The translations under genes were made by a program, and so were the position numbers. A stretch of DNA of 63,535 nucleotides, counting the filler, from Globobulimina sp. (Eukaryota): NCBI GenBank assembly GCA_003354225.1. It is 23 parts of 23 records of this genome, joined end to end, with 100 filler letters (N's around TTAATTAATTAA, not from the genome) between each part and the next. Parts side by side here need not be neighbours in the genome. Positions count along the whole stretch, not along the records: positions 30,442 to 33,108 come from PIVH01005450.1; 22 more parts are not named here. One strand, written 5' to 3'. Positions 2,769 to 59,824 of this stretch are shown piece by piece. How positions within the stretch are numbered: the first letter of the stretch is position 1; each line of letters begins with the position of its first letter. The notes beneath the pieces are model-generated. The model did not search any database. It saw nothing but the letters and a program-made list of their open reading frames with translations, and was not told the origin of the DNA.

Positions 2769-5176
2769 TAATTGTATTTCTTTTTTAACATAATTATTAT
2801 TTTGATAATCTCCCATCAACAAAGTATATTTGCCCGCAACAATTCTTTCTTGGCCCAATTTGTTTGTCAATGATATTGCTTCCGCAGTCACAGAGAATGT
2901 GACATTTACACTTTGTCCAATTTGAACATGCACCCTTTGAAAATCAAATAATTTTATTCTCGGTGATGTAGCATTCGCATTCTCCGATGTTACAAATCCT
3001 AATACAACACAGTCCGAATCCATATTCCCCGTATTTGTGACTTGCACAATATACTCAGTGGCACCATCACTATGAAAGAATTTATGACCGCGATACCAAT
3101 TTGCCAACTTAGCTGTATTTATCACCGAATTTGAATCCGAACCATTGAAATATTTGTACATCAATGCTGCGCAAATTGACCTATCATGGCCAAAAATAAA
3201 TATTCCAGCTATACTTGCTGCATTTTATCCTGGCGAATTGGGCGGCGATGCATTGATATCCATCTTGTATGGCGATTATAGCCCCGCTGGTAAACTGCCG
3301 TACACATTGTACAATATGTCGTGGATTTGCAGAATATATCTCCTGCAATAAATCAAATTGATAGCCTGGAAACGTCACATTCTCTCTGTCAAAATCCTCC
3401 GCCTCCAAAGCTTGACTATAATTCTGGTCCGGCATTGCATACTGCAATGGATATAAACCCATGAACATTATTACTGTATCAACTGATTTGGCCACATTCA
3501 CAGCATCAGCAAAACCTTTGTGTTTGTTTCATTTGCATGCGGATCCGGATGAATATATATATTATGAATTTAACCTGATTTAGCTTTGCATTCTACATCG
3601 CAGCCTAAGGAATATTTTATATTTATACCTTGCTGCATTCCAACCTGATACGGACTGTGCGAATCAACCAAGGTATTGTCGCCACGATAGGATGATAACA
3701 TATATTGCGTAATATTGAAATGAGGACCAATAAAAGCATATGTTTTTGAACGATCCTTGCTTAGCGGCAAAGTGTTATTATTCTTATTTTTCAGCAAAAC
3801 AATGCCTTGCTGTGCTGCATTCAGTGCTAATTCCCGATTGTAAGGAGAATCTACATACTCTTTACCATATTCCTTATATGCCACATTGGTGTCCATTTGA
3901 CCCAACATAAAGGATACTTTCATCCACCGTGAAATCGCTTGATTAACACTCGATATATTTATAACATTACTAACCACCGCATTTTCCATATATTGTGTAT
4001 AAAACGCATCGCCTAAATCAGCATCACAACCACTTTCAAGCGCAATTTTAGTCCGAATGAGCCGTAAATGCATCATCTACAATGGCATTGGCGTCGGATA
4101 TCACAAAGCCTGTAAAGTTCCATTCATTCCTCGCAATTTCATTCATGAATCCATGGTTACCGCAGGCTGGCACACCGTTGATCGCATTGTAGGAACACAT
4201 AATAGACTGAGCATTGGCCACTTGTATAGCACTGCGCCACGCAGGGAAATAATATTCAACCTGATCCTGAGCAGAAACAATGGCGTTGAAAGCGCCTCGA
4301 CACGGAATACCATAGCGACATCCTTCGAGATTGTAGTCTGCAAAATGTTTGACAGTGTTGCTCATTTTCAAGTATTTCCCCTTTGCTTCTCCCGGAGCTA
4401 TGCCATATTGTATGCCGGTTATATATTGCACCGCGTACTGAGAGGTTAGATATGGATCTTCCGAAGGAACTATACAAATAAATACATGACAAAGTGCAGT
4501 CTGCTCCAAAGTAAAAACGAAATATACCTTCCTGTCCCCGGCCCCATCGCGGATGAAGGAATAAGTTAATATCAGGACTGAAACAGTACAATCCGCCAAT
4601 GTTTTGGTTATCCAATGCTCGGCCTTCGTCACTGATGGCAATGCCAATTTTGTTCCACAGCGTGCGATTGAACGAAGCTCCTAAATTCAAGCCATTTGGG
4701 AACGATGTCGGACAGCCTGTGTTGCCATTGTATGCAGCACCGCATCCGCTGTATATACCATGTAAACATTCCAACACTTTATTTTTCGGAATGCCCAAGC
4801 GGGGAACACCACTGTTTGTCTCGGCTAAGTTGTCTATTTTCTCATAGATGGTCATCCTATTTATCAAATCAGCCACTCTGACATCGATATCTAATGCTTG
4901 GTTGCAATATGGATATGTATTGAAGGGAGCGTCTGAACAGTTTTTCAATGGGTAATAGGCTGCAGTTACGCATAGACTTTGATTGTTTGCTGTTATATAT
5001 CCTGTATTGGTGTCATAGTAGAATTCTTGTAATATGTTGTTGTCGTAGCCATAGTCACAGGGCAAGGTTTGAATTGGTGCATAAGCTCCAATACCAATGG
5101 TTTGTAAACATAGCCCATTTACTTTGATATTGACGGATGATTTGCCGGTAACTGGGGAGAAAGAAAATTGTTCCAT
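2769..5176 (-). CDS. GH3 beta-xylosidase/glucosidase with N-terminal ricin-B-like region and C-terminal FN3-like domain; multi-exon; internal segment 3155-3315 inverted
   Basis: TSFPNGLNLGASFN, PRWGRGQE..SEDPYL, KHFADY, IMCSYNAINGVPAC, GFVISD, GIVLLKN, EAEDFDR, VTNTG, LFDFQRV. Confidence 0.93.
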
Positions 5177-11457: not shown

Positions 11458-12466
11458 TTATTCAATTTGAGTGTCTTCGATTGCTAAATGTTGCTCTAAC
11501 TCATCACGCCCCGAAATTCCACCCATTCCCAATGACTCCTTTCCATTAAAAATATTAAACCACACTCCAGCAATAATACCACCTTTTTAATTAAATTGCA
11601 TATCAAATATACACTGTGCAGTAAATACAATTAAATCTGTACATACCTAAAAAAGTGCCAATCCAATAAACCCATAAATCAGTGATGCCATTTCCAGTCT
11701 GTCCACTAATGATCGCTGGAATAACCGCACCTAAATAAACCGCAGTATTTAAACAACATCCACTTATTGGCGCAATACATGCAATCGCCACTGACAGAGT
11801 CAAACCAATGCTTAATCCATAAAATTGATTCCCTGATTGCCGTTTATCAGTGGCAGTATAACACACTGTTCCCGCCAACAATGAGGTAAACAAAACCTCT
11901 CCGAAAAATGCCTGAAACACTAGATTTACATCATCATATTTGTCTGCATCTTGCCATACTGTGTGATATATTGCTGCTGCTTTGTCGCCACCTGTGTAAT
12001 CACACATTGTTACAGGCGCATAATTGTAAAAACGTATTGTATACAATTAATATATTATTCTACCTATATACCAAGCCATCAATCCTCCGAATATACCCCC
12101 AAGATATTGTGATACAAAATACATTAAAACCATTCCACGTTCAGACAATGGGAAATCAGGGATGTTTCGTATAATGAGAGCCATTGTGACCGATGGATTT
12201 AAATGGGCACCGGAGATGTAACCAAAATTATAAATTAATAATGCTAAACCTAAACCAATTGTTAATGAAGTTGTATAATCGTCATATGCCACTGCTAATT
12301 TTATAATCATTGTTAAAAACATTGTGCCGGTGAATTCCGCTGCATATTTCGCTCGATTCTGTAAAGTGGTTCGTTTTTTTTTATATTTAGTTTATGTTTG
12401 CATATAAATTAATTTGTGCAACAACAAATGTTTCCACCCAACTGCACGATTGAATGTAGTGCCCAT
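11458..12466 (-). CDS. Aquaporin/MIP family protein, about 4 exons
   Basis: AEFTGT, ISGAHLNPSVT, QYLGGIFG, FFGEVLFT, GLSIG, ISGCCLNTA, LWVYWIG; GT-AG introns. Confidence 0.92.
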
Positions 12467-24060: not shown

Positions 24061-25390
24061 TCTTGGTGGTTTGTTTCTTTAGAACTGGGCCAACTGGCTT
24101 CTTCAGTGAGGACAAGAATGATTGAGGGTGTGTAATTCCGATAGAAAAAAGGGTAAAGAATCTTAAAATAGAATCTAAAAATATAATAGCGATGCAAATA
24201 TAGAATATCGATAAAAATGTGGATTATGGAACTTTGAGCACAGCTACCAATGTTTACAATGCAGCTGACTTACACATCTAGTATTCACTCCGTTTTTTGT
24301 CTATTAAAGCTCTAGCTGGTAAACACGCCATCTGAATATACTGGAGATTTTTGTGTCAATTGCTTCCCATTCGTTTCTTAGCCGGCATTAGACTAGTACT
24401 ACGCTGGTTTTCTCAGTTATTTCTCATTAAATTCGATATCCAAATCAATTGACACAAAAATGACATTAATAACTTATCTTTTACACCGCAAGCAATCCCC
24501 GATACAGGATTATATGGAAGTGACGGCCTTTAGTTTTCATCTTGTGTCGACTCATCCCTCGACGTGTTAATAGAGTATACCATTATACTCCTCACTTGGT
24601 TAAAGGTTGACATTTCACAAAATAGTACATTTTGTAAGCTTTTGTCATTGTCATGTATGTGTTTTGTCTATCTATTGTCAAGTACTATATATACCACCCG
24701 AAATATCTCTCTAGTAGAAATAATTGTCATTTTGTCCACGTTGATGACAAATATGTCACAGTGTCATACATATTGTCTAAATCACAAATTATGACATGCC
24801 ACATCGTNNNNNNNNNNNNNNNNNNNNNNNNNNNNNNNNNNNNNNNNNNNNTTAATTAATTAANNNNNNNNNNNNNNNNNNNNNNNNNNNNNNNNNNNNN
24901 NNNNNNNATTTTTCATGATTTTTCTCATTTTTCAGGGATTTTCCTCATTTTCATCGATTTTTCTCATTTCCATGAAAATTGTTATATATATCCTAGATAT
25001 GAGATCCGAGATATGAGATATCATGTTATTTTCATGATATTCGATATTTCTGAAACTAACATATTCGTCTTCTTTTCAATCAAAAAGTGAGAAGTAATAA
25101 AACAATCGAAAAACGTATATTAGCGACGCTTCGGAGTAATACGTCTATACCAGTGGACACTTTATGCGACATGATGAAGGACAGAGAAGCACATTTTTTT
25201 TTAAGGAGGGGGTTACAAAAACACACAATCAAACACAAGTACATTTAACGGTCTGGAGTGCAAGTGACCAGTGCAACTAATGGGATATACCCGATAAAAT
25301 GTGTCATGAGAAGAGCAAAAGCAATTCCAATAATCTTTCATCTGGAGCGATACTTGTTCATGTATTAATTCTGTTGGTAGTTATTCGTTT

Positions 25391-25837
25391 ATGTTACGTT
25401 GGCGAGATTTTAAAGAGTTTTCAAAGGAAAACAAAAAAGATTGGAAACAAATTGGCATTCCAAATGTGGTTAGAGTGTGGGTGTGTCGTCAAGGAGGCGA
25501 TGAGTTTGCGATGGTGGTCAAAGGATATGCTCACAAAGAGTCGAGTCAACAAAAGTTATATGATTTATTGAAGAGTGAAGTGAATAGAAAAAGAATTGAG
25601 AATCCACAAAGAGTGAAAGGGATTGAGAATATTACAATCAGTGTTGGTGTCTGTCATGGATATGCAATCACAGATTATAAAGAATGCCTTAAAAAAGCTG
25701 ATGACGCTGCAGAAATCGTGAAAAAGAATGGCAGAAATGAAGTGAAATTGTATTTAAAATATGGTAATAAAATGGTATCAAATTTGAGCGACAAGCTAGA
25801 TTATCTGTTTCTGTATTGGATCAACGTGATATCATAG
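25391..25837 (+). CDS. GGDEF (diguanylate cyclase-like) domain, C-terminal half
   Basis: RQGGDEFAMVV, ITISVGV, LKKADDA..VKKNGRNEV; YVGEIL lies in the adjacent frame. Confidence 0.8.
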   Translation: MLRWRDFKEFSKENKKDWKQIGIPNVVRVWVCRQGGDEFAMVVKGYAHKESSQQKLYDLLKSEVNRKRIENPQRVKGIENITISVGVCHGYAITDYKECLKKADDAAEIVKKNGRNEVKLYLKYGNKMVSNLSDKLDYLFLYWINVIS

Positions 25838-29963: not shown

Positions 29964-30453
29964 AAAACTATAAGCTTTGTGTACATTTTATTAATTTATA
30001 ATTTTATTACCAAAAAACGCCATACAAGGTGAGAGCAGTCTTAGATGCACATACCACGGTCTACACTTTCTAAAATCTAACCGAACTAAAGAATGTTAAA
30101 CATGTGTTGGAATTAGTTTGAGCATAGGAACATGCTCTTTACATGCGATGATATCAAATAGGAGATTTGTTAAATATAGCACTGAATGCAAAGCAGTAAT
30201 TATACAGAAAGGAGTTGACGATGGAATTACTAAGTGTTTATGTGATGTTGTAACTGCCGCTCTGAACGGTGACAATGATAACAGTGATGTTGAATGGCCT
30301 TATTATGAGATTAAATTTATGATTAAAAAAGATGAAGATAGNNNNNNNNNNNNNNNNNNNNNNNNNNNNNNNNNNNNNNNNNNNNTTAATTAATTAANNN
30401 NNNNNNNNNNNNNNNNNNNNNNNNNNNNNNNNNNNNNNNNNTCAAGATAGAAT

Positions 30454-31749
30454 CTATCTATTTCTTCGTTGCTTCGTCTTGTTTTTGATTTGTTGATAGC
30501 AAAAACGTCGGTCTTCGGCTTTTGCCCAGGGGTCAAAGACAACACTGGTCTGTAAAAATAACCGGTTTTTAGTATTTAAATCATTGTGGGGGGGACCGTG
30601 TATGATATCGTGATTCATATGACTGAGGGCGATAGCATCCGGACGGATGTAACGCATACTAATGTCTGGTAGTTTGGCATCGCTCCATCCGACATATTTC
30701 AAAATAAGTCCATGAGCAATACCTACCTGCGATGCTCTGGTGGTGCCTCCAATTCGGGAACTATAAGCGGAGAAACGCTTTGGTTCCAAGATGTATCTGG
30801 AATTGGCCGCGACCACTTCTTTGATTATCTTAGCGAGAGAGGTTGTGTCCACCACTTTGCCACTCGACCATACAAAGACATTTTTGTTGGCTGATAATTG
30901 AAGACTGTTTTTTTGTTTGCCATCATGGAGAGTGGCTACTAATGTCTTCCTTCGTTGTAAATAAACTCTCAACAGTCGTAGTGGGCTCAATAGTTTGCAC
31001 GGACAGGAATGATTGGTTCGTAGTACGTTGGAACAGTAGGAATGGCCAACGAATACCAATTTGGAGTCATTGAGAGATTTCATGGATTTGTGTGACACAA
31101 TCTGCATTCTGAGGAAGTGAGTGGTTGCATCGGATTCATTTGGTTTGATGAAGGCAATGTGTTTGAATTTTACACCTCTTTTGGTATCAGAATAGCGAGA
31201 AAGGAGCAGTTCCGATGGACGGGACATGGTAAAGAAGTACATTTGGATTATCAGGACTTTTAATAAAGTATCCAATGGTATGGTTTGATAATGATTTATA
31301 ACACAATTGGATTGTAATGTATATCGGATTAAATGCTGGAGCTTCAATGGTAAGCGAGAATCGGACGGCGTATCAAAACGCTTTGTGGCGCTCAATTTAA
31401 ATCTTGTATATTCATTGTCGGTGTTGAACGTAGGATGAATGTCATCAATTTGATGCAACCATAATAACATTGATTGCGCTCCACGGATACATGTGGTTTT
31501 ATTGGTTTGTTGGATACGATCCGCTATCCAAAATAGGGCGAGTGAGGGATTGGTAGGTAGATGGAATGGATTTTCTTTCAATGTGACGCAATAAAACACC
31601 CAATTCCTCAAATGTGAGATGTATTGTACTTTCGTTCCAATACATTTGTCTAAAATGTTAGTTTCAACAATAAAATCCGCTGTTTTAGGTCGTTTGGCCG
31701 CGAGTTTGTGCGTTTTCCTAAATCTTTTAAGGTACCAAGCTACACACAA
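30454..31749 (-). CDS. Tyrosine recombinase of the YR retroelement
   Basis: SRLPL, FFTMSRPSELL (R), SHKS (K), AYSSRIGGTT (HxxR equivalent), VGWS, MRYIR (Y). Confidence 0.92.
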   Translation of the reverse strand: MCVAWYLKRFRKTHKLAAKRPKTADFIVETNILDKCIGTKVQYISHLRNWVFYCVTLKENPFHLPTNPSLALFWIADRIQQTNKTTCIRGAQSMLLWLHQIDDIHPTFNTDNEYTRFKLSATKRFDTPSDSRLPLKLQHLIRYTLQSNCVINHYQTIPLDTLLKVLIIQMYFFTMSRPSELLLSRYSDTKRGVKFKHIAFIKPNESDATTHFLRMQIVSHKSMKSLNDSKLVFVGHSYCSNVLRTNHSCPCKLLSPLRLLRVYLQRRKTLVATLHDGKQKNSLQLSANKNVFVWSSGKVVDTTSLAKIIKEVVAANSRYILEPKRFSAYSSRIGGTTRASQVGIAHGLILKYVGWSDAKLPDISMRYIRPDAIALSHMNHDIIHGPPHNDLNTKNRLFLQTSVVFDPWAKAEDRRFCYQQIKNKTKQRRNR

Positions 31750-31812
31750 AAACAGTTAACATGAAAGGAAAGGTAATGGCACAGTTAAAGAGACTGTTAG
31801 ATAGGGAGTGGA

Positions 31813-33108
31813 TTATAAGGAGAAATTGGAGGCATAATTGGGATAACCAATTCGTGCGCGTTCTTGTAACGGTAGACACAGAAAGTCAATAAACGCTTGA
31901 TACTCAGCGTCAATATATTCAACATCTTGGATAGGATTATCAACATTTAATTGCTTGTTCATGAATTTAAAATCTTCGAAATAAACTGTTTCTGTTTTTT
32001 TAATGGTCATTTCCAGATTAAAGTTGTTAACCATAGTCCAGAATGTATCAAATTTATTTCTTGACAGGGCATCGGACAATCCATTGGTTGATGAGGAAAT
32101 GGCATCGATCCAAACCAAGAACTTGTATTCCAACATCAAATGACATAACTCATATATGAAAAGCATTAAATTGTATGACGAGGACCATTTTCGTTTGAAT
32201 GCATAAAAGACAGATTCATTATCAATAAAAAGATGGACTGTTTTACCAGATAAATAATATCGGAATGTATAGAGGGCCGAAAGCATTACGTGGGCCTCTT
32301 TCTGGTTAATATGCCATTGTTTGGAATGGGTTTCATTGAACGGATAATGCGACCAATATCCTCCAACTACAAAGCCGCCGTTTGTGGAGGAGGCATCAGT
32401 GGAGGCTGAAATTGTCATATTGTGATGCATCAATATTTCGGACATTGGGACAGCGAGGATTTGGTCCGCAAAAAAGTACCAATACCTCAAATCATTTAAT
32501 ATGGACATTGGTAGAATGAAGTTGTGATTTTTGGGGTATTTACCTGAACGGATATTTTGATGGATGAATTGGAGGAGGTTCCAGCACAACGCCTTTGTTG
32601 GTTGTTTCAATTGGGCCCAATGCATAATTGTGCCACATATGGATTCCAACGCTGCTCCAGTAACAACTCTGTATTGCATTGTATATAGCAATAATTGTTT
32701 GAAATTTTTATATTTGATTGGCGGAATGCCGACCATTTTGGTTTTTAAATCAAAGAAAATGCCATATATTACTGCGGTTTGGCACGCATGAATATGTCCA
32801 GACGCTTTTAAGGAGACTTGGACGTTGAGTTCACGCATCAAATCATCGAAGCGTTTCTCCATTTCTATACACTCCGCTTCAGTCACTGCTCCTAACACAA
32901 AATCGTCAATATGGACAAGGGATTTGTTACGCCATTTATGGTCAAATACTTTGTTGTCTAAAATCCATATTAAAATCCGGGCAAAGTACTGTGAGTTTGC
33001 TGGCGCTGAAGCCACTCCGTAAGGTTGTTTACGATCACGCCAAACTAACCCAAATAAGGAGTAGCAAATAAAATTGCTATCTTCTTCACAAAGTCCGATT
33101 TGACGAAA
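31813..33108 (-). CDS. Reverse transcriptase + DIRS-type RNase H, 5' truncated
   Basis: FRQI..D..QPYGVASAP, VHIDDF, IYGIFFD; RNase H STDAS, HINQKEA, FIDNES, NGLSDALSR. Confidence 0.93.
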   Translation of the reverse strand, partial: FRQIGLCEEDSNFICYSLFGLVWRDRKQPYGVASAPANSQYFARILIWILDNKVFDHKWRNKSLVHIDDFVLGAVTEAECIEMEKRFDDLMRELNVQVSLKASGHIHACQTAVIYGIFFDLKTKMVGIPPIKYKNFKQLLLYTMQYRVVTGAALESICGTIMHWAQLKQPTKALCWNLLQFIHQNIRSGKYPKNHNFILPMSILNDLRYWYFFADQILAVPMSEILMHHNMTISASTDASSTNGGFVVGGYWSHYPFNETHSKQWHINQKEAHVMLSALYTFRYYLSGKTVHLFIDNESVFYAFKRKWSSSYNLMLFIYELCHLMLEYKFLVWIDAISSSTNGLSDALSRNKFDTFWTMVNNFNLEMTIKKTETVYFEDFKFMNKQLNVDNPIQDVEYIDAEYQAFIDFLCLPLQERARIGYPNYASNFSL

Positions 33109-41509: not shown

Positions 41510-43311
41510 GTCAAAGTATATCATGTCGATGAGTCCTTCTTCATTTAAGTCCTTGTATTCATTCTCTTCCCATTTTTGTTCTATTTCAAAATCATTGTGC
41601 ATTTGTTCCTTTGTTTCTGTATCAATCATTGATATTTCATTTTGTTTTTTCTCAGGTTTGTGTGGATGGAAAATTATGGAATTATTCATATCATTTTGCA
41701 GCATATTATGAACATTATTTATTTCGTTTATGTTTTCATTGGTTTCTATGGGTGGATCAGTTATGTCAGAACATATATTCTCATAATGCTTTCTGAGTGC
41801 TATGTTTTTGGGGGTTATTTCACCTTTATACATTAGGTAGGGTTCGTCAACAGTGTATTCATTGCGTTTGAAATGGTTTTTATACTGTTTCAATTTTTGG
41901 GAATTGTTCAGAGACTTAAATTTCTCCGCACTTTTCATTATATTCTCATTGCGGATCTCACGTGCTGAAATCTCCGTTTGTTTGAAATTATGCTCTGTTT
42001 GGTTGCATTATTTATGTTTTGGATATTTGTGAAAGTCCAATTGTTCATTGTCTCCATATTATATAGGCCAAATGCTTTGATCGTGGCGAGGATCATGGTA
42101 TAGTACGTTGCATATGTGGTCATTTTGGAGATGTATTTGCTTTCGTATCTATTTTGTGCAATTGGTGTATTTTTGCTGGAAAATTTGTGAATGTAATGAT
42201 ATCGTTTTGTGAGTATATGCTTATGTATTTGTATCAACTGTTTATTGGGCTGCTGAGTGCGGAAATTATAGTGCGCTTCTGCTGCTTTGTATTTGCAATG
42301 GACATTATTTATGGAGAGCACAATTGGTCGATGATCATAGTATACTGGGTGCGTTTCGATTTTCATACCGTGTATGGCATTATCATCATTTGTGAGGACA
42401 TAATCCACTATTGATCCTTTATTGTTTGTGTCTGTACCAAACGAGGTTGATATTCCATTGGTCCATTTACTATTTGCAACTGAGATATTTGTGGAATCTA
42501 TTAATTGTTCCATGATGGTACAGTATCTGTTTTTGACTGGTACTCCATCTTTGTTTTTATCCCCTGTTCTGTCGCCAGTTCGCGCATTGAAGTCCCCAAT
42601 TATTAGCATATCAGAGCAGTTATTTTTGTAGTTATTTATTGTATTTCCGAGTTTTTTATAGATCCGTTTCGTTTTCTCAAACGTATCATCATGGTACTGC
42701 CGTACATAGTTTATGGAGAGATAAATCGGTTTGTCATTCTCTTTTTCAATTTCAAACCACATTCCATCATATCCCTTTGATTTTGCCTTCAATTGTATTT
42801 TCGTTTTCAGTTTCCTGTTTTTGTAAACAATTATTCCTCCCACATAATTGTCCTTACCTACTGGTGCTTTGTGGCCAATCAATTCAAATCCATTGAGGTT
42901 CCATTTTGGTCTATCCTTCATGCCTGTGTCAACAAATGCTATTATGTCCAAGTGTTGGTTATTTCTCAAAAGTTGGTGGATCCATGGATGGCTATGATTT
43001 ATGACCGTTTTACATTTACTTTTTATGTTTAGAAATGCTATTTTCATTTTTTTAAGGGTCATTATTGTGGCTGTGTGTGGATATTTCTTTGGTGCAAAAA
43101 TTTGGAGGAAGGGGAATTGTTGGATGAGATGTGGGATATCTTTTTTACTAAAGTCTTTCATTATTTTTTTGAAAAGATATTCCTTTCTGTCATACAGGTC
43201 TGTGTTGTCTATGTAATATTTGTTTGTTGCATACATGAACAGGTTATTCAGCGCTATTATTGCATTGTTCTTCAATGTGGAAATGAATAAATTACTATTA
43301 CGTTTGTGCAA
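41510..43311 (-). mobile_element. APE-endonuclease-encoding (non-LTR/LINE-like) element fragment, with deletion/frameshift near 41985
   Basis: IAFLNI, DIIAFVDT, GGIIVY, IIGDFNARTG, SIVDYVL, DHRPI; RT not reached. Confidence 0.8.
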
Positions 43312-44275
43312 TGTTTGTCAGTGGGAAACAGTTTTTTATTGATTTATCTTACACATAAATTTAACGATTTTCAACATTCACACAATGGCAAACAAGTACA
43401 AAAGCAGATACCGTTCAATGTAAAATTACAAAGGATCAATAACACTCGTAAACAACCTTCAAACATCAAACAAATTTCCATCACATTTTTGGTTCTGTAA
43501 TAATTATTTTCGATATAATTTGATTGATTGGTTCCATATACATGTATTTCCCCCTTTATATTATAATAGAAATACTATTTGCTAGCACAATACTAGTTCT
43601 GTACTAGCACTGGGCTTACCAAGTTATGTAACTGGGAACTTAAATGCAAAAAGATTACTGTTACTTTCAATTTCAAAACTTGATTGGCACGGAAGAGCAG
43701 TCTAGGTACGTGCACGCCTGTAGCCAAAGGACCCATCTGAAAGAGGGTCAAATCCACTTGGCAAAGTTTTCTAGAAACAAAACAATGACTTTAAAGGAGT
43801 AGCAAATATATAATGTGAGATGTGATATGATCAAACTTTAATTGGATTTTTTTAGATTGTTTGGTGAAAACACCACGTGTATTTTAAATTCCGATAGTTT
43901 GTGTCTGGGAACGATTTGTAAATCAATTAAATTCAATTTAGAACATATCAACGCGGTTGCTGATGCTTTTTAGTTTTGAGTCTTTTGACAGGCATATTTT
44001 GCTCACTTTTTTGGAAGAAAATGTCACTTTGATCCTCAACATTCCAATATTCACGCTTACTGATTTTGGTTGAATACAAAATGAGCACCATCTTTGTAAA
44101 TTATATCCATACATATTTCCTAAAACAATAATATCTTTTTCTAAATTGACATCATTGACCATAAATGGATCCAACNNNNNNNNNNNNNNNNNNNNNNNNN
44201 NNNNNNNNNNNNNNNNNNNTTAATTAATTAANNNNNNNNNNNNNNNNNNNNNNNNNNNNNNNNNNNNNNNNNNNN

Positions 44276-52573: not shown

Positions 52574-54810
52574 AATGAAATATTATATTACGCATCAATT
52601 CCCCCAACATATTGCTATCCGTTTTAAAAAAATACCATATAACAAACAAACAGTGGAACAAACTATTTTCAAACAACTGCACGCTTTTGACAAAAGTCCG
52701 GCAAATATACTGAAACTATATGACTTTATCAACAAACACCAATATGTAGAAAATGACCCTATACTGCAGCAATCCGTAACAAATAATAAATACCACATAA
52801 AATGGTTTGTTCCTGAAAATAAAAACACAAATGATATCATAAACCATTGGCAAGGGACTAATCATAGTCTCAACTTAAATATACACACATTACACAGAAA
52901 TAATTGGATAAATAATCAGAAGAATAACGCCATATTATCCCTAAATCAAATGTATAAACACGCAATCAATTCGCATAAAACTAATAATGATGAATTAAAA
53001 CGTTTTAAAAACTTCCTGTTAAGTAAAATAATACAGCAACACGTAAACAATGAGCAATTTCCAGATAAAGATATCCCTAATATAATCCTTCGATATCCAT
53101 TCATGCAAATTTACACTCCACACATTGAGCCTTGACATCCACTCAAATCCGAATCAGAAACATAAAAATTGGCTTCCTAAATATAAACGGCAATGCCAAA
53201 ATAAAAATAAATCAAATACACCCATATATGCAGCAGTTAGTGCTCCACCATAAATTAGACATTATCCTCCTCGTTGATACCAGAAGAGTCAGTCGACCCA
53301 ACTGGAACCTGCCTGGATATAAATTGGTTGTCCATAAATCGCCAGTCACCACCAACAACCCCAGGAATGTAGGTGGCATCCTAATATATTATAAAAACAC
53401 ACTAAAAAATAAAATACATCTAATCAAAAAGACAAGAGGCCATAACACTGCCTGGATCTCCATAGACATCACTGACCAGGCAAAACCAACATATATTGCC
53501 ATAAATTACGCCCGCACCTACAAACCCAAAATAAGTAACAGAAGCCACAACTTCTATGACCTCCTGACCAATGATATAAATAATTACAAACCACTCTGTC
53601 ACAGCATGTATGTCCTCGGAGATTTCAATGCGAGAATGGGTTCACTCACAATGGACCATAACACGAATGGGCACTACCGTTATATGAAAAAATGTTAGAC
53701 GACACCAATCTGAAAATTGCCAACCCTCAATTTGCCCCCAAATTCCTGACCTGTCTGGCTAAAGGCACTATGAATGAAGGTGGCTCCATAATTGATTATG
53801 TAATAACTGATAAGTTAAACACAATAAAATCCATGAATGTCGACACGCATCCGGTGTTTACTGACCATAGACCAGTAGTATTCACCCTAAATAACATCAA
53901 ATGTGAAACACATACCATCGACAAACACCTAATCCTAAGGGCCTACAAACCCAATGATGAACTAATAAAAATACATGAACGTATCTTAAGTCGCTCCACA
54001 GTACACCTCGACAAATTTGCTGCCAATATAAATAATGTCGACACTGACCAAGAAAGAGAATACATTTCCCATATAGCGTCCATTTCTGCCACCTACATCC
54101 TGCATCTTGCGACCATAAAAGCCTTCGGATTATCGGATTTCAATGCGGCCAACAGATGGTCCCAAATCACCAGAAAGCAGGTCACCTTAAACATAAAACA
54201 GCGCCTTTTAATAAATACCAATAGCAAAACAGATGAAGGCAGCAAATTAATTAAGGCCGCGGAGAATGAATACCTACAAACTAAACAAAATATGTTGACA
54301 CAAAACACCATAAAATTTAATAACCTGAATAACTGCAACAAATTAAAAACGTTTAAAATGTATAACAAGAAAACAGATTACATACTCGACGAACCCCATC
54401 TCCGCTATAACGACACCATAATGGATAAAAACAAAGCCCTCTCACACTTCTTTTGCAAAATAAATGGACCCATAACAGATCCTGATAATAACCCTAAAAT
54501 TGACGAAATAAATCAGTTCAACGATGAATTGAATAAACACTGTAATAACACCTTAACATTCATACCACACAAACCAGGAGACGATGACCAAAATATGTCC
54601 CCAAATTGCCCCCTTCACACCATTATGAACGCTGACAATAATCCCAATATACATTATGACTCAGACAATGATCCAATCACTGTCCCACACTATGACCCGA
54701 ACTATGTACCACCTACGCAACCATTGATGGACGAACTATATAATCTTGAACATAATAATGATTCCTCAGACAGTGATGATGATGTTTTAATAGATATGAA
54801 GCAACAACCT
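52574..54810 (+). mobile_element. Second APE-endonuclease (LINE-like) element fragment, homologous to 41510-43311, two frameshifts
   Basis: IGFLNI, DIILLVDT, VGGILIY, VLGDFNARMG, SIIDYVI, DHRPV, LATIKAFGL, DEP, ITDP. Confidence 0.8.
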
Positions 54811-55239
54811 CCTTATTTCCTTTTTGCATTATCAACTTTTTCTCTATTAACGGGCTGTGAAGAAGATAGCAATACAAAAACGGGCGTGTTTATTGATAGC
54901 CCTGTCGCCAATATAGCCTATAGTACGCAGTCTAAAGGCGGATACACAGATGTGAATGGGAAATTCAAATATGAAGAAGGCCAAAAAATAGTTTTTAGTA
55001 TTGGTGGTATAGAGCTTCCACAAGTTCAAGCTGAAAGCGTTATTACTGTGTTGGACCTTCTGGGAACTGGTAATGTTAAAAATACAGCTATATTAAATAT
55101 TGCAAGGCTGCTTCAAACACTTGATGTAGATGGCGACCCAGACAACGGTATCGAAATTTCAGACCAGGCTCATTCATCTGCTACAGGTATGTCAGTTTCT
55201 TTCGAAAGTGAAAGATTTGATGATGATGTTGTAAATCTG
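54811..55239 (+). CDS. Bacterial-type lipoprotein N-terminus joined in frame to the element
   Basis: Hydrophobic stretch + lipobox LTGC, TGVFIDSPV, YTDVNGKFKY, FSIGGIEL, NIARLLQTLDVDGDPDNGIEI. Confidence 0.7.
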
Positions 55240-58568: not shown

Positions 58569-59824
58569 TCATTGAATAACATTCTTAGAATGAATGCCTT
58601 GCGTCACCCACAATTTAACCAAAGCTTGCATGATATTGGTCTCCACCTCCTGGCAATATTCATTCATCTGCGCAGTCAACGTCACAGATTCGAACCTTTC
58701 CGGCTCTTCCTCCGCAGGAAACATTTTCGCCGTTTCCGGCATTGGCCTTGGTTTCTGTCCACGCGATCTCAATTTCTTATTTTCCTCATTGAACTTCGTA
58801 ATGAAGGCCTCCCTTTTATTCTTATTCTTCAATGACTTGCCATAATAACTCCGAAACTGCTGCGTCTGCTCTGCATAGTCGTCAATGGACGCACTCAATT
58901 GCTGCAAGTTGGTTTGTAGCGAGCGTTCGTGCGAATGATGCAACCTCGCAAAGCCCCCATTGCCTCGAAATGATTTTAACTGCGCAATTTCATACAAAAA
59001 CGCATGCACCAAATGCGAATTATGAATCTTCACATCCAGCTCTTGAAAAATGTCCATGTCGTCTTGTTGCGCGATGTGAGAAGCTCCAAAGCTTTGCAGC
59101 GCATAAAATTTCATAAACGAGTCCCTTAATCGAAAGGCCCGCACAACTAAGCGGCCACGGATAGACGCGTTCGGGTCATAGATGATGCAGACAGAGGTCG
59201 ACGACTCTCGCTGATGTCTGAACAATGCGTCGATGGTCTGGGCGCTCAGAAAGGCGCCGTTTAGCGCCGAACGATAGAATCCAATGGTTAGGTTATCTTC
59301 GCGTATTCTGCTCATCAAACGGATCATGTCTCGGGCATAGCCGTCTGCTTTTTTATGCGCTTTGGCTTTGGCTTTGTCATTGATTTCATCCGAATCCGGC
59401 TAATTATGTCATTTATATATTTCACAATTAAAGTCATCAAATTTGCATTTTATTTATTTGTTTATTTAACTGCGAATGGTGTGTTAGGCTCAGGGAAACA
59501 ATTTGTGATTTCGACGGTATTTTTGCCAGTTGGCAAACCCAATAATTTGCCGCTTACCGCTTGGCGTTGGGATAGATATTCCCCGCAATGCTTGATTATT
59601 TTCAATAGGACTAAGCCTTCAATTTGCACTCCGGTTATTTTGCGAATCACTCGCTTTAACAGTGGCCGTTTGCCTTTTTGTAGTGGTCTTCGTGTTTGTG
59701 TTTGTGGCTTTTTTTGGTTGTTTGGTTTTTGTGGTGGTTGTTGTTGTTGTGGTGGTTGTTTTGGCGGCGGCCGGCTTTGTGGATTGTTTTTGTTTTGTTC
59801 GGGGCGGCGAAAAGGTTGTGCCAT
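58569..59824 (-). CDS. EIF3H: Eukaryotic translation initiation factor 3 subunit H, intron near 59400-59470
   Basis: VQIEGLVLLKIIKHC, GKLLGL, VEITNCFP, IIYDP, RAFRL, IHNSHLV. Confidence 0.92.

Follow-up and report, generated by a model that had tools for sequence, protein, structure and literature searches.

In some retrotransposons, splicing of the element's own RNA governs which products are made. The inter-ORF region of Ogre elements is an intron that is removed from only part of the transcripts (PMC6317226), and in copia and BARE1 alternative splicing sets the Gag:Pol ratio while the unspliced RNA serves as the replication template (PMC3735527); for these and all other papers cited here, our statements refer to excerpts of the text. 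Among the tyrosine recombinase (YR) retrotransposons, elements of the Ngaro group consist of a first open reading frame (ORF1), a reverse transcriptase–RNase H ORF (RT-RH) and a YR ORF, with no methyltransferase between RNase H and YR (PMC13465315, PMC3783388), and the YR may share the frame of RT-RH or be in a different one (PMC3783388). DIRS-like elements often carry a methyltransferase domain, inverted terminal repeats and an internal complementary region (PMC13465315), and in YR elements the YR and RT/RH ORFs often overlap extensively (PMC6681497). The excerpts of PMC3783388 and PMC6681497 describe the layout of the ORFs, not how the ORFs are expressed. Where the excerpts on DIRS-1 mention introns, these were engineered into reporters (PMC7192593); no natural intron of a DIRS, Ngaro, PAT or VIPER element, and no ATG-less ORF of the Ngaro group, was found in the excerpts searched, a set that excludes the original Ngaro papers and later reviews. 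Here we describe a Ngaro-like element from Globobulimina sp. (assembly GCA_003354225.1), located within a 63,535-base stretch of DNA that was analysed as a whole and is referred to as the window, in which the YR gene lacks a start codon and begins directly at what is probably a 3' splice site.

The element occupies its own 2,667-bp contig (positions 30442–33108, minus strand), which holds its 3' two-thirds, namely the 3' part of the RT, RNase H, a spacer and the YR; the contig stops 12 nt past the YR stop codon and lacks the element's 5' region. RT-RH is followed by YR with no methyltransferase domain between them, which is the Ngaro-type order, and on this gene order we class the element as a Ngaro-like YR retrotransposon. 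Related loci were obtained from a scan of metagenome contigs, which returned seven loci; none was found in genome contigs or viral contigs, and a search of the window for a second copy of the element contig gave only the self-match. Two loci, L001 and L002, are close relatives (YR identity 74% and 68%, respectively) and nearly full length, with the order Cys/His-rich ORF1 (∼365 codons), RT-RH and YR; no long repeats were found in either. All three ORFs of L002 are intact (362, 640 and 429 codons), and the RT of L001 has a frame break near positions 2460–2500. Loci L003 to L006 are distant relatives (27–39% identity) in which the junction between RT-RH and YR is covered. The L003 contig holds only 38 nt of the RT end, and its RT frame is assumed.

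The absence of an ATG near the start of the YR ORF, reported in an earlier note on this DNA, was borne out. The YR frame is open from 31755 to the stop codon at 30456–30454, and the coding sequence downstream of the candidate splice site (30454–31739, minus strand) is ATG-less for its first 90 codons, the first ATG in this frame being codon 96 of P0001, or codon 91 counted from the AG codon. Pairwise comparison of these 90 codons among the window copy, L001 and L002 gave a proportion of nonsynonymous differences (pN) of 0.157–0.237 and a proportion of synonymous differences (pS) of 0.731–0.826, and the remaining YR has a matching pN of 0.179–0.222, the synonymous sites being saturated. The ATG-less start is thus under purifying selection and therefore translated. 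In an AlphaFold2 model this segment is predicted to form helices, with a predicted local distance difference test score (pLDDT) of 72–90. In seven of seven loci an in-frame stop codon lies 0–8 codons 5' of the AG with no intervening ATG, so the YR cannot start upstream in its own frame. At least five further 50%-identity clusters from a library of 1.84 billion proteins begin no earlier than the Met that corresponds to codon 96, indicating that the ATG-less state is recurrent.

At the 5' boundary of this selected sequence lies a candidate 3' splice site, the AG at 31741–31740 (TGTGTAG/CT, minus strand, phase 1), and conserved YR coding begins with the codon that holds the G of this AG (GCT). 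Positions −32 to −3 in front of the AG are 73% pyrimidine, which, together with the CTAAC at 31800–31796, confirms the pyrimidine-rich tract ending in TGTGTAG, with a CTAAC earlier, on which the first description relied. Counted from the translations, a phase-1 AG (TAG or AAG) stands 16–18 codons 5' of a conserved P(K/H/A) position in seven of seven loci, whereas the background frequency of a phase-1 AG is 171 of 2871 codon boundaries, or 6.0%. Considering this background and the four or five independent lineages represented, conservation of the AG is unlikely to be due to chance. The sequence 5' of the AG is unalignable even between close copies, and the alignment picks up at the AG. In several homologues (P0046, P0039, P0092 and P0097) the called ORF extends upstream of the AG point and reads F/L/C-rich there, which has the look of a translated pyrimidine tract. 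We conclude that the AG at 31741–31740, with its T/C-rich tract, is probably a genuine 3' splice site.

The likeliest 5' partner in the window copy would be a GT at 31847–31846 (ATT G/GTTATC, minus strand, phase 1), which follows a G at 31848 and splits a GGT codon after its first base. The 108-nt interval that these sites delimit (31740–31847, minus strand) contains two in-frame TAA codons (31815–31813 and 31758–31756) with no stop between them, confirming that RT-RH and YR share one frame in the window and are parted by two TAA stops; it also contains two branch-like motifs, the CTAAC noted above and a TTAAC at 31759–31755, and the T/C-rich tract. Removal of the interval joins the frames in phase 1 on both sides through the junction codon G+CT (Ala), a restoration that follows in part from how the GT and AG were picked. 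Codons of the form xGT make up 110 of 2287 (4.8%), and the chance of finding a usable GT/AG pair in a single copy, within the last 15 and first 5 codons, is ∼0.14 (0.5 × 0.27), or about 1 in 7; the pair in one copy is therefore weak evidence and not beyond chance. The relatives add to this. L001 has the same candidate donor, G/GTTATC, 12 codons before the RT-RH stop (11 in the window); L001 is of the GT–AG type and L002 of the GC–AG type. At a distance from the RT-RH stop of exactly 11 codons, as in the window, L003, L005 and L006 each have a phase-1 GT, within GGT (frame assumed), CGT and TGT, respectively; the GT is kept in these three, against the background of 4.8%, while the amino acid differs (G, R and C). 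A GT at −11 or −12 codons is hence present in five of the six loci that have a spacer, with GC in L002. Taken together, these data make the GT at 31847–31846 a possible donor, to which we assign the role tentatively.

The arrangement of the reading frames in the relatives limits how RT-RH and YR could be joined. The donor-to-acceptor intervals measure 108, 117, 125, 103, 99 and 128 nt (modulo 3: 0, 0, 2, 1, 0 and 2). RT-RH and YR are in different frames in three of the six spacer-bearing loci, L002, L003 and L006 (modulo 3: 2, 1 and 2), and do not overlap in any of the six. With differing frames and no overlap, RT and YR could be joined in these loci only if the spacer were taken out; for the same reason frameshifting fails in the relatives, and the frame differences exclude readthrough as a family-wide route. 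The spacer itself is unalignable between copies, and both of its flanks are conserved.

These observations lead us to propose, with some reserve, that the YR reading frame forms the 3' exon of an mRNA made by splicing, that its 5' partner in the window copy is most likely the local GT, and that splicing is partial. Removal of 108 nt in phase 1 would drop both TAA codons, and the RT-RH chain would run on from ..RARI, by way of an Ala codon, into the N-terminus of the YR. The RNA left unspliced would encode an RT-RH protein ending in ..GYPNYASNFSL and would also serve as template for reverse transcription, while a weakly spliced fraction would yield an RT-RH-YR fusion, so that the amount of recombinase would be set by the efficiency of splicing. 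From the sequences we infer three steps here: splicing itself, the role of the local GT as its donor, and its partial extent. As a whole, with the local donor included, this reading strikes us as plausible but falls short of probable. The last 11 RT-RH codons (G-YPNYASNFSL; 31816–31848, minus strand) would be intronic if the local donor were used. The protein encoded by the first 10 of these codons is identical in the alignment of the window copy, L001 and L002, and the 10 tail codons behind the donor have a pN of 0 and a pS of 0.32–0.63, so the tail ..YPNYASNF is translated. Conservation of this tail, and selection on it, would fit an unspliced product that is functional.

Several findings weigh against this proposal, and above all against its donor. 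In the C-terminal part of RT-RH, the peptide with the strongest conservation is encoded by what would be the first 30 nt of the intron. The donor codon of L002 is GGC despite its three intact ORFs, and across the window copy, L001 and L002 the T of the donor varies like an ordinary synonymous site. The amino acids G, R, C and S, for which xGT codons exist, are not enriched in 47 RT-RH homologues at −11 (7 of 47) or −12 (4 of 47), compared with a background of 16%, and three close kin of L006 carry Y, T or I at the position of its Cys. Of six relatives with the tail motif, four have G at the donor codon, and the other two have K and P, residues that no xGT codon encodes. L004 has no spacer, its RT-RH and YR overlapping by 85 nt (L004 304–389) in different frames; its conserved YR N-terminus begins 25 codons 5' of the first YR ATG. 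A fused RT-RH-YR ORF was found in none of 143 YR representatives (longest, 463 aa) and in none of 47 RT-RH homologues (maximum 646 aa, in a search that admitted up to 1120 aa), and 2785 longer candidates gave no match to a fused protein, the last of these being weak evidence. Finally, all three ORFs of the full-length relatives L001 and L002 are ATG-less, and in L002 the 47 codons nearest the ORF1 stop include no xGT; one shared mechanism would be more economical than a series of local introns. The 108-nt phase-1 GT–AG intron put forward in the earlier note thus stands as regards its sites, length and phase in the window and its AG, which is kept in seven of seven loci; for conservation of the donor the findings are divided, with GT in five of the six spacer-bearing loci, GC in L002, and K or P at the donor codon in two of the six tail-motif relatives. 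The comparison with homologous copies proposed there likewise recovered the AG and its phase in seven of seven loci and the GT in L001, and returned GC in L002 and no fused ORF. As to the RT-RH-YR fusion by splicing, the ATG-less, selected YR start and the conserved AG speak for it, and the missing fused ORF and a rival donor against it, so that the original interpretation is partly supported.

The alternative that survives best retains the same acceptor and places the donor far upstream or on another RNA, so that a 5' (or trans-spliced) leader would supply an AUG plus one base. Such a leader, shared among the genes, would be joined alternatively to phase-1 acceptors of ORF1, RT-RH and YR to give separate subgenomic mRNAs, and the YR would be a free-standing protein with a leader peptide of 2–4 residues rather than part of a fusion. 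The rival is a serious one because the RT ORF and ORF1 are also ATG-less after a phase-1 AG. In L001 (328–2553) and L002 (2743–5929) these two ORFs lack an ATG over 99 and 77 conserved codons, respectively, with a pN of ∼0.21 and a pS of ∼0.79 between the two loci; with the YR, all three ORFs are thus ATG-less over 77–100 conserved and selected codons. The RT is preceded by a T/C tract and a phase-1 AG, after which conserved coding begins (..TTCAG/AG in L001, ..CTTAG/AA in L002). ORF1 homology starts at ..ACAG/T in both loci, suggesting that conserved ORF1 coding, too, probably restarts just past a phase-1 AG. A shared leader requires equal acceptor phase, which serial introns would yield by chance in only 1 in 3 to 1 in 9 cases. 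It also accommodates L002, which is without a local GT donor at both junctions and whose ORFs are intact, and L004, in which the AG lies inside the RT-RH ORF, and it predicts the lack of fused ORFs that was observed. L001 has a phase-1 GT five codons before its ORF1 stop. A shared leader leaves unexplained why L003, L005 and L006 have a phase-1 GT at 11 codons from the end of RT-RH.

A possible source of such a leader is a 67-nt block at the 5' side of the two close relatives (L001 1–67, L002 2216–2285), which is ∼90% identical, far above the coding identity of these loci. In both, the block contains an ATG and then ..ACG/GTACTGCAG, giving an ATG-started mini-ORF of 2–4 codons that ends in a phase-1 G/GT, a candidate donor. 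The match in phase is weak, however, and depends on different ATGs: the common ATG is in phase 1 in L001, whereas in L002 its phase is 2 and the ATG that fits is another one, 5 nt upstream, and we estimate the chance of such a match at ∼0.2. Moreover, the block forms two hairpins on folding, and every difference between L001 and L002 falls in a loop, which raises the possibility that it serves another purpose, such as a recombinase site or other cis element. A search of L001 and L002 against Rfam gave nothing at E ≤ 1. A 31-nt pattern from the block was found only in L001 and L002 and is absent from the window, where the contig ends short of the 5' region. The introns implied, of 0.4–3.8 kb, would also be long compared with the four visible host introns of 62–80 nt. 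In sum, the local intron fits the short-intron style of the host, the GTT donor and the coincidence at −11, whereas a shared donor fits L002, L004, the equal acceptor phase and the lack of fused ORFs; we regard a remote or trans-spliced donor as rather unlikely, yet the strongest competitor to the local GT.

A wider reading would extend the missing start to the whole element: none of the three genes would have a start codon, and all would be expressed only through splicing. A short upstream exon would provide the AUG, alternative phase-1 acceptors and/or retained inter-ORF introns would set the ratios of polymerase, recombinase and structural protein, splicing would take the place of frameshifting or readthrough, and only fully unspliced RNA would be copied. 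We consider this extension improbable at present, though worth stating.

Another alternative does without splicing altogether. The YR would be translated from a near-cognate start, by reinitiation or by internal ribosome entry, or else the window copy and its close kin would be inactive and the AG a by-product of the TAA/TAG stops at the end of the spacer. In agreement with the last point, the nearest upstream stop in the YR frame is TAA in seven of seven loci, and in L001, L003 and L005 (TAA/G) this stop supplies, with its final A, the first base of the AG. Many relatives have an ATG of their own soon after the point equivalent to the acceptor: the inferred first Met falls at query positions 6–40 in 42 of the 76 representatives whose match starts at or before query residue 96 (76 of 143 YR representatives were used and the other 67 rows set aside), and L003 and L004 have an ATG of their own at codons 7 and 26. 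These positions were taken from phmmer coordinates, a MAFFT alignment having been discarded because it stacked the initial Mets in one column. The published layouts, as far as the excerpts of PMC3783388 and PMC6681497 extend, likewise comprise only separate, overlapping or frameshifted YR ORFs. Against this alternative stand the purifying selection on 90 ATG-less codons in three elements with saturated synonymous sites and the five or more further clusters that start only at the codon-96 Met. No near-cognate codon is common to the loci, and in L001 the stop directly precedes the first conserved codon. The gag-like ORF1, presumably needed in quantity, is ATG-less as well. Translation without splicing therefore appears unlikely to us. 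Least tenable is a continuous RT-RH-YR protein made by reading through the two TAA codons, or with TAA as a sense codon, which would suit the window copy and L001 with their shared frame and two intervening stops, but which we reject as most improbable because it is contradicted by the frames and stops of the relatives (the first stop of L001 is TGA, the frames differ in L002, L003 and L006, and the L005 spacer has five in-frame stops), and because the spacer cannot be aligned between copies while its flanks are conserved, the long ORFs are free of in-frame TAA and those of the host stay open when read with the standard code.

The assignment of the two ORFs rests on the following comparisons. 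The window RT-RH ORF (31813–33108, minus strand, from its translation; 5' end cut by the contig end, stop TAA at 31815–31813) matched the Pfam families RT_RNaseH (E = 9.7e-05) and RVT_1 (E = 0.043), both under the curated cut-offs. It is 73% identical to residues 207–639 of the 640-aa RT-RH ORF of L002, which itself clears the Pfam cut-off for RT_RNaseH. About 75 residues separate the RNase H end motif from the RT-RH stop. The window YR protein had no match in Pfam, and of its first 12 homologues two touched Phage_integrase (best E = 7.7e-05). A sequence-profile search of the PDB with the YR returned no recombinase, its sole match being attributable to chance (E = 0.25), so that a fold search was needed. 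An AlphaFold2 model built with 70 relatives (pLDDT 90, predicted template-modelling score 0.87) has a two-domain, Cre-like fold, and Foldseek gave 45 matches in the PDB at E ≤ 0.001, with Cre recombinase in the top ranks over both domains (E = 2.4e-07; template-modelling score 0.72, normalised to the target). Across 70 sequences R179 and K223 show no variation, and conservation reaches at least 90% at R334, W357 and Y369; we take these residues to be the R..K..R..H/W..Y catalytic set. As a separate observation, L002 carries a 701-codon ORF upstream of the element (L002 2–2104), open at its 5' end and with no counterpart in L001; a family search with it gave no match, the only hit being HSBP1 at E = 0.0025, under the cut-off.

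A search for RNA runs that carry the contig returned none. Three runs were compared with the element. Run X1 yielded 108 matching contigs (8 at ≥99% identity, 11 at 90–95% and 89 at <90%), X2 none and X3 one. With some 100 diverged contigs in it, the X1 sample indicates that the element family is multi-copy and diverse there. The predicted joint of 31848 to 31739 was not among the 15 joints listed out of 27, a result that is neutral on splicing. Two error-free X1 contigs over the junction end at 31740 and at 31768, leaving the T/GT run 5' of the AG unbridged; length variation in this T/GT run would be the simplest reason.

The window itself is a chain of 23 separate contigs of 2,665–2,668 bp, ordered by falling length and joined by 22 linkers of the form N44-TTAATTAATTAA-N44, and genes on either side of a linker are therefore not genomic neighbours. 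Artificial linkers flank the element contig at 30342–30441 and 33109–33208, as mapped from the N-runs, and the PH-domain ORF that appears 'upstream' of the element belongs to another contig. Pfam continuity places four host introns, at approximately 1909–1986, 11990–12062, 59400–59480 and 3530–3592, in genes for V-ATPase a, aquaporin, eIF3h and GH3; all are short GT–AG introns of ∼62–80 nt. Their donors are GTATGT, GTAGAA and, twice, GTTAAA, with an unusual T at +3. The statement that GTT donors are common in host genes of this window thus holds for two of four placed introns, a tiny sample, and a Pfam scan of 74 short ORFs revealed no extra host introns. Compared with these four introns, the candidate is longer (108 nt), and its donor, GTTATC, resembles GTTAAA.

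Other features of the window were recorded in passing. The GH3 gene shows a frame change without an intron-like interval at ∼4040–4080 (minus strand), which is either an assembly indel or a sign of a pseudogene. An ORF at 25334–25834 (plus strand) encodes a GGDEF diguanylate cyclase (E = 2.8e-09) on an AT-rich contig, adjoining a fatty-acid desaturase ORF; such a domain would be unexpected in a eukaryote, should the contig belong to the host. ORFs of the endonuclease/exonuclease/phosphatase type found in non-LTR (long terminal repeat) retrotransposons, at 41941–43317 (minus strand) and 53129–55239 (plus strand), indicate that there are other retroelements in the same assembly.

A conserved acceptor in front of an ATG-less, selected YR offers a testable answer, for one family, to the question of how the ORFs of these elements are expressed. 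If confirmed, it would extend splicing-controlled polyprotein expression, as in Ogre, copia and BARE, to another order of retroelements; and if all three ORFs prove to be without starts, the element would stand out among mobile elements as one wholly reliant on the host spliceosome for translation. There is also a consequence for annotation, in that gene calling based on ORFs truncates these recombinases to start at an internal Met, as in the public clusters, at least five in number, that begin at the equivalent of codon 96.

Avian leukosis/sarcoma viruses splice the gag AUG and a few codons onto env. The present element resembles the retroviral env mRNA in that the acceptor lies just before the end of the preceding ORF, or inside it (L004), and in that a leader would, under the rival explanation, supply the AUG; it differs in having no env and in that three ORFs, not one, would need the candidate leader donor. 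With DIRS-1 of Dictyostelium it shares the YR retrotransposon type and the three ORFs. With the Ngaro group, as excerpted, it shares the gene order, the lack of a methyltransferase domain and a YR frame that may be the same as that of RT-RH or different. Ogre, a Ty3/gypsy LTR element of legumes, likewise has two ORFs parted by a short non-coding region; here, however, the element is a YR retrotransposon and the interval lies between RT-RH and YR, and whereas splicing of Ogre was shown in experimental work cited by PMC6317226, that of the present element is proposed from sequence comparison. The likeness to copia and BARE1 (PMC3735527, as excerpted) is that partial splicing of the element's own RNA would tune the proportions of the products. 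In copia and BARE1, the effect of splicing is to remove or shorten pol, which leaves a Gag-only message, whereas here it would add a downstream enzyme.

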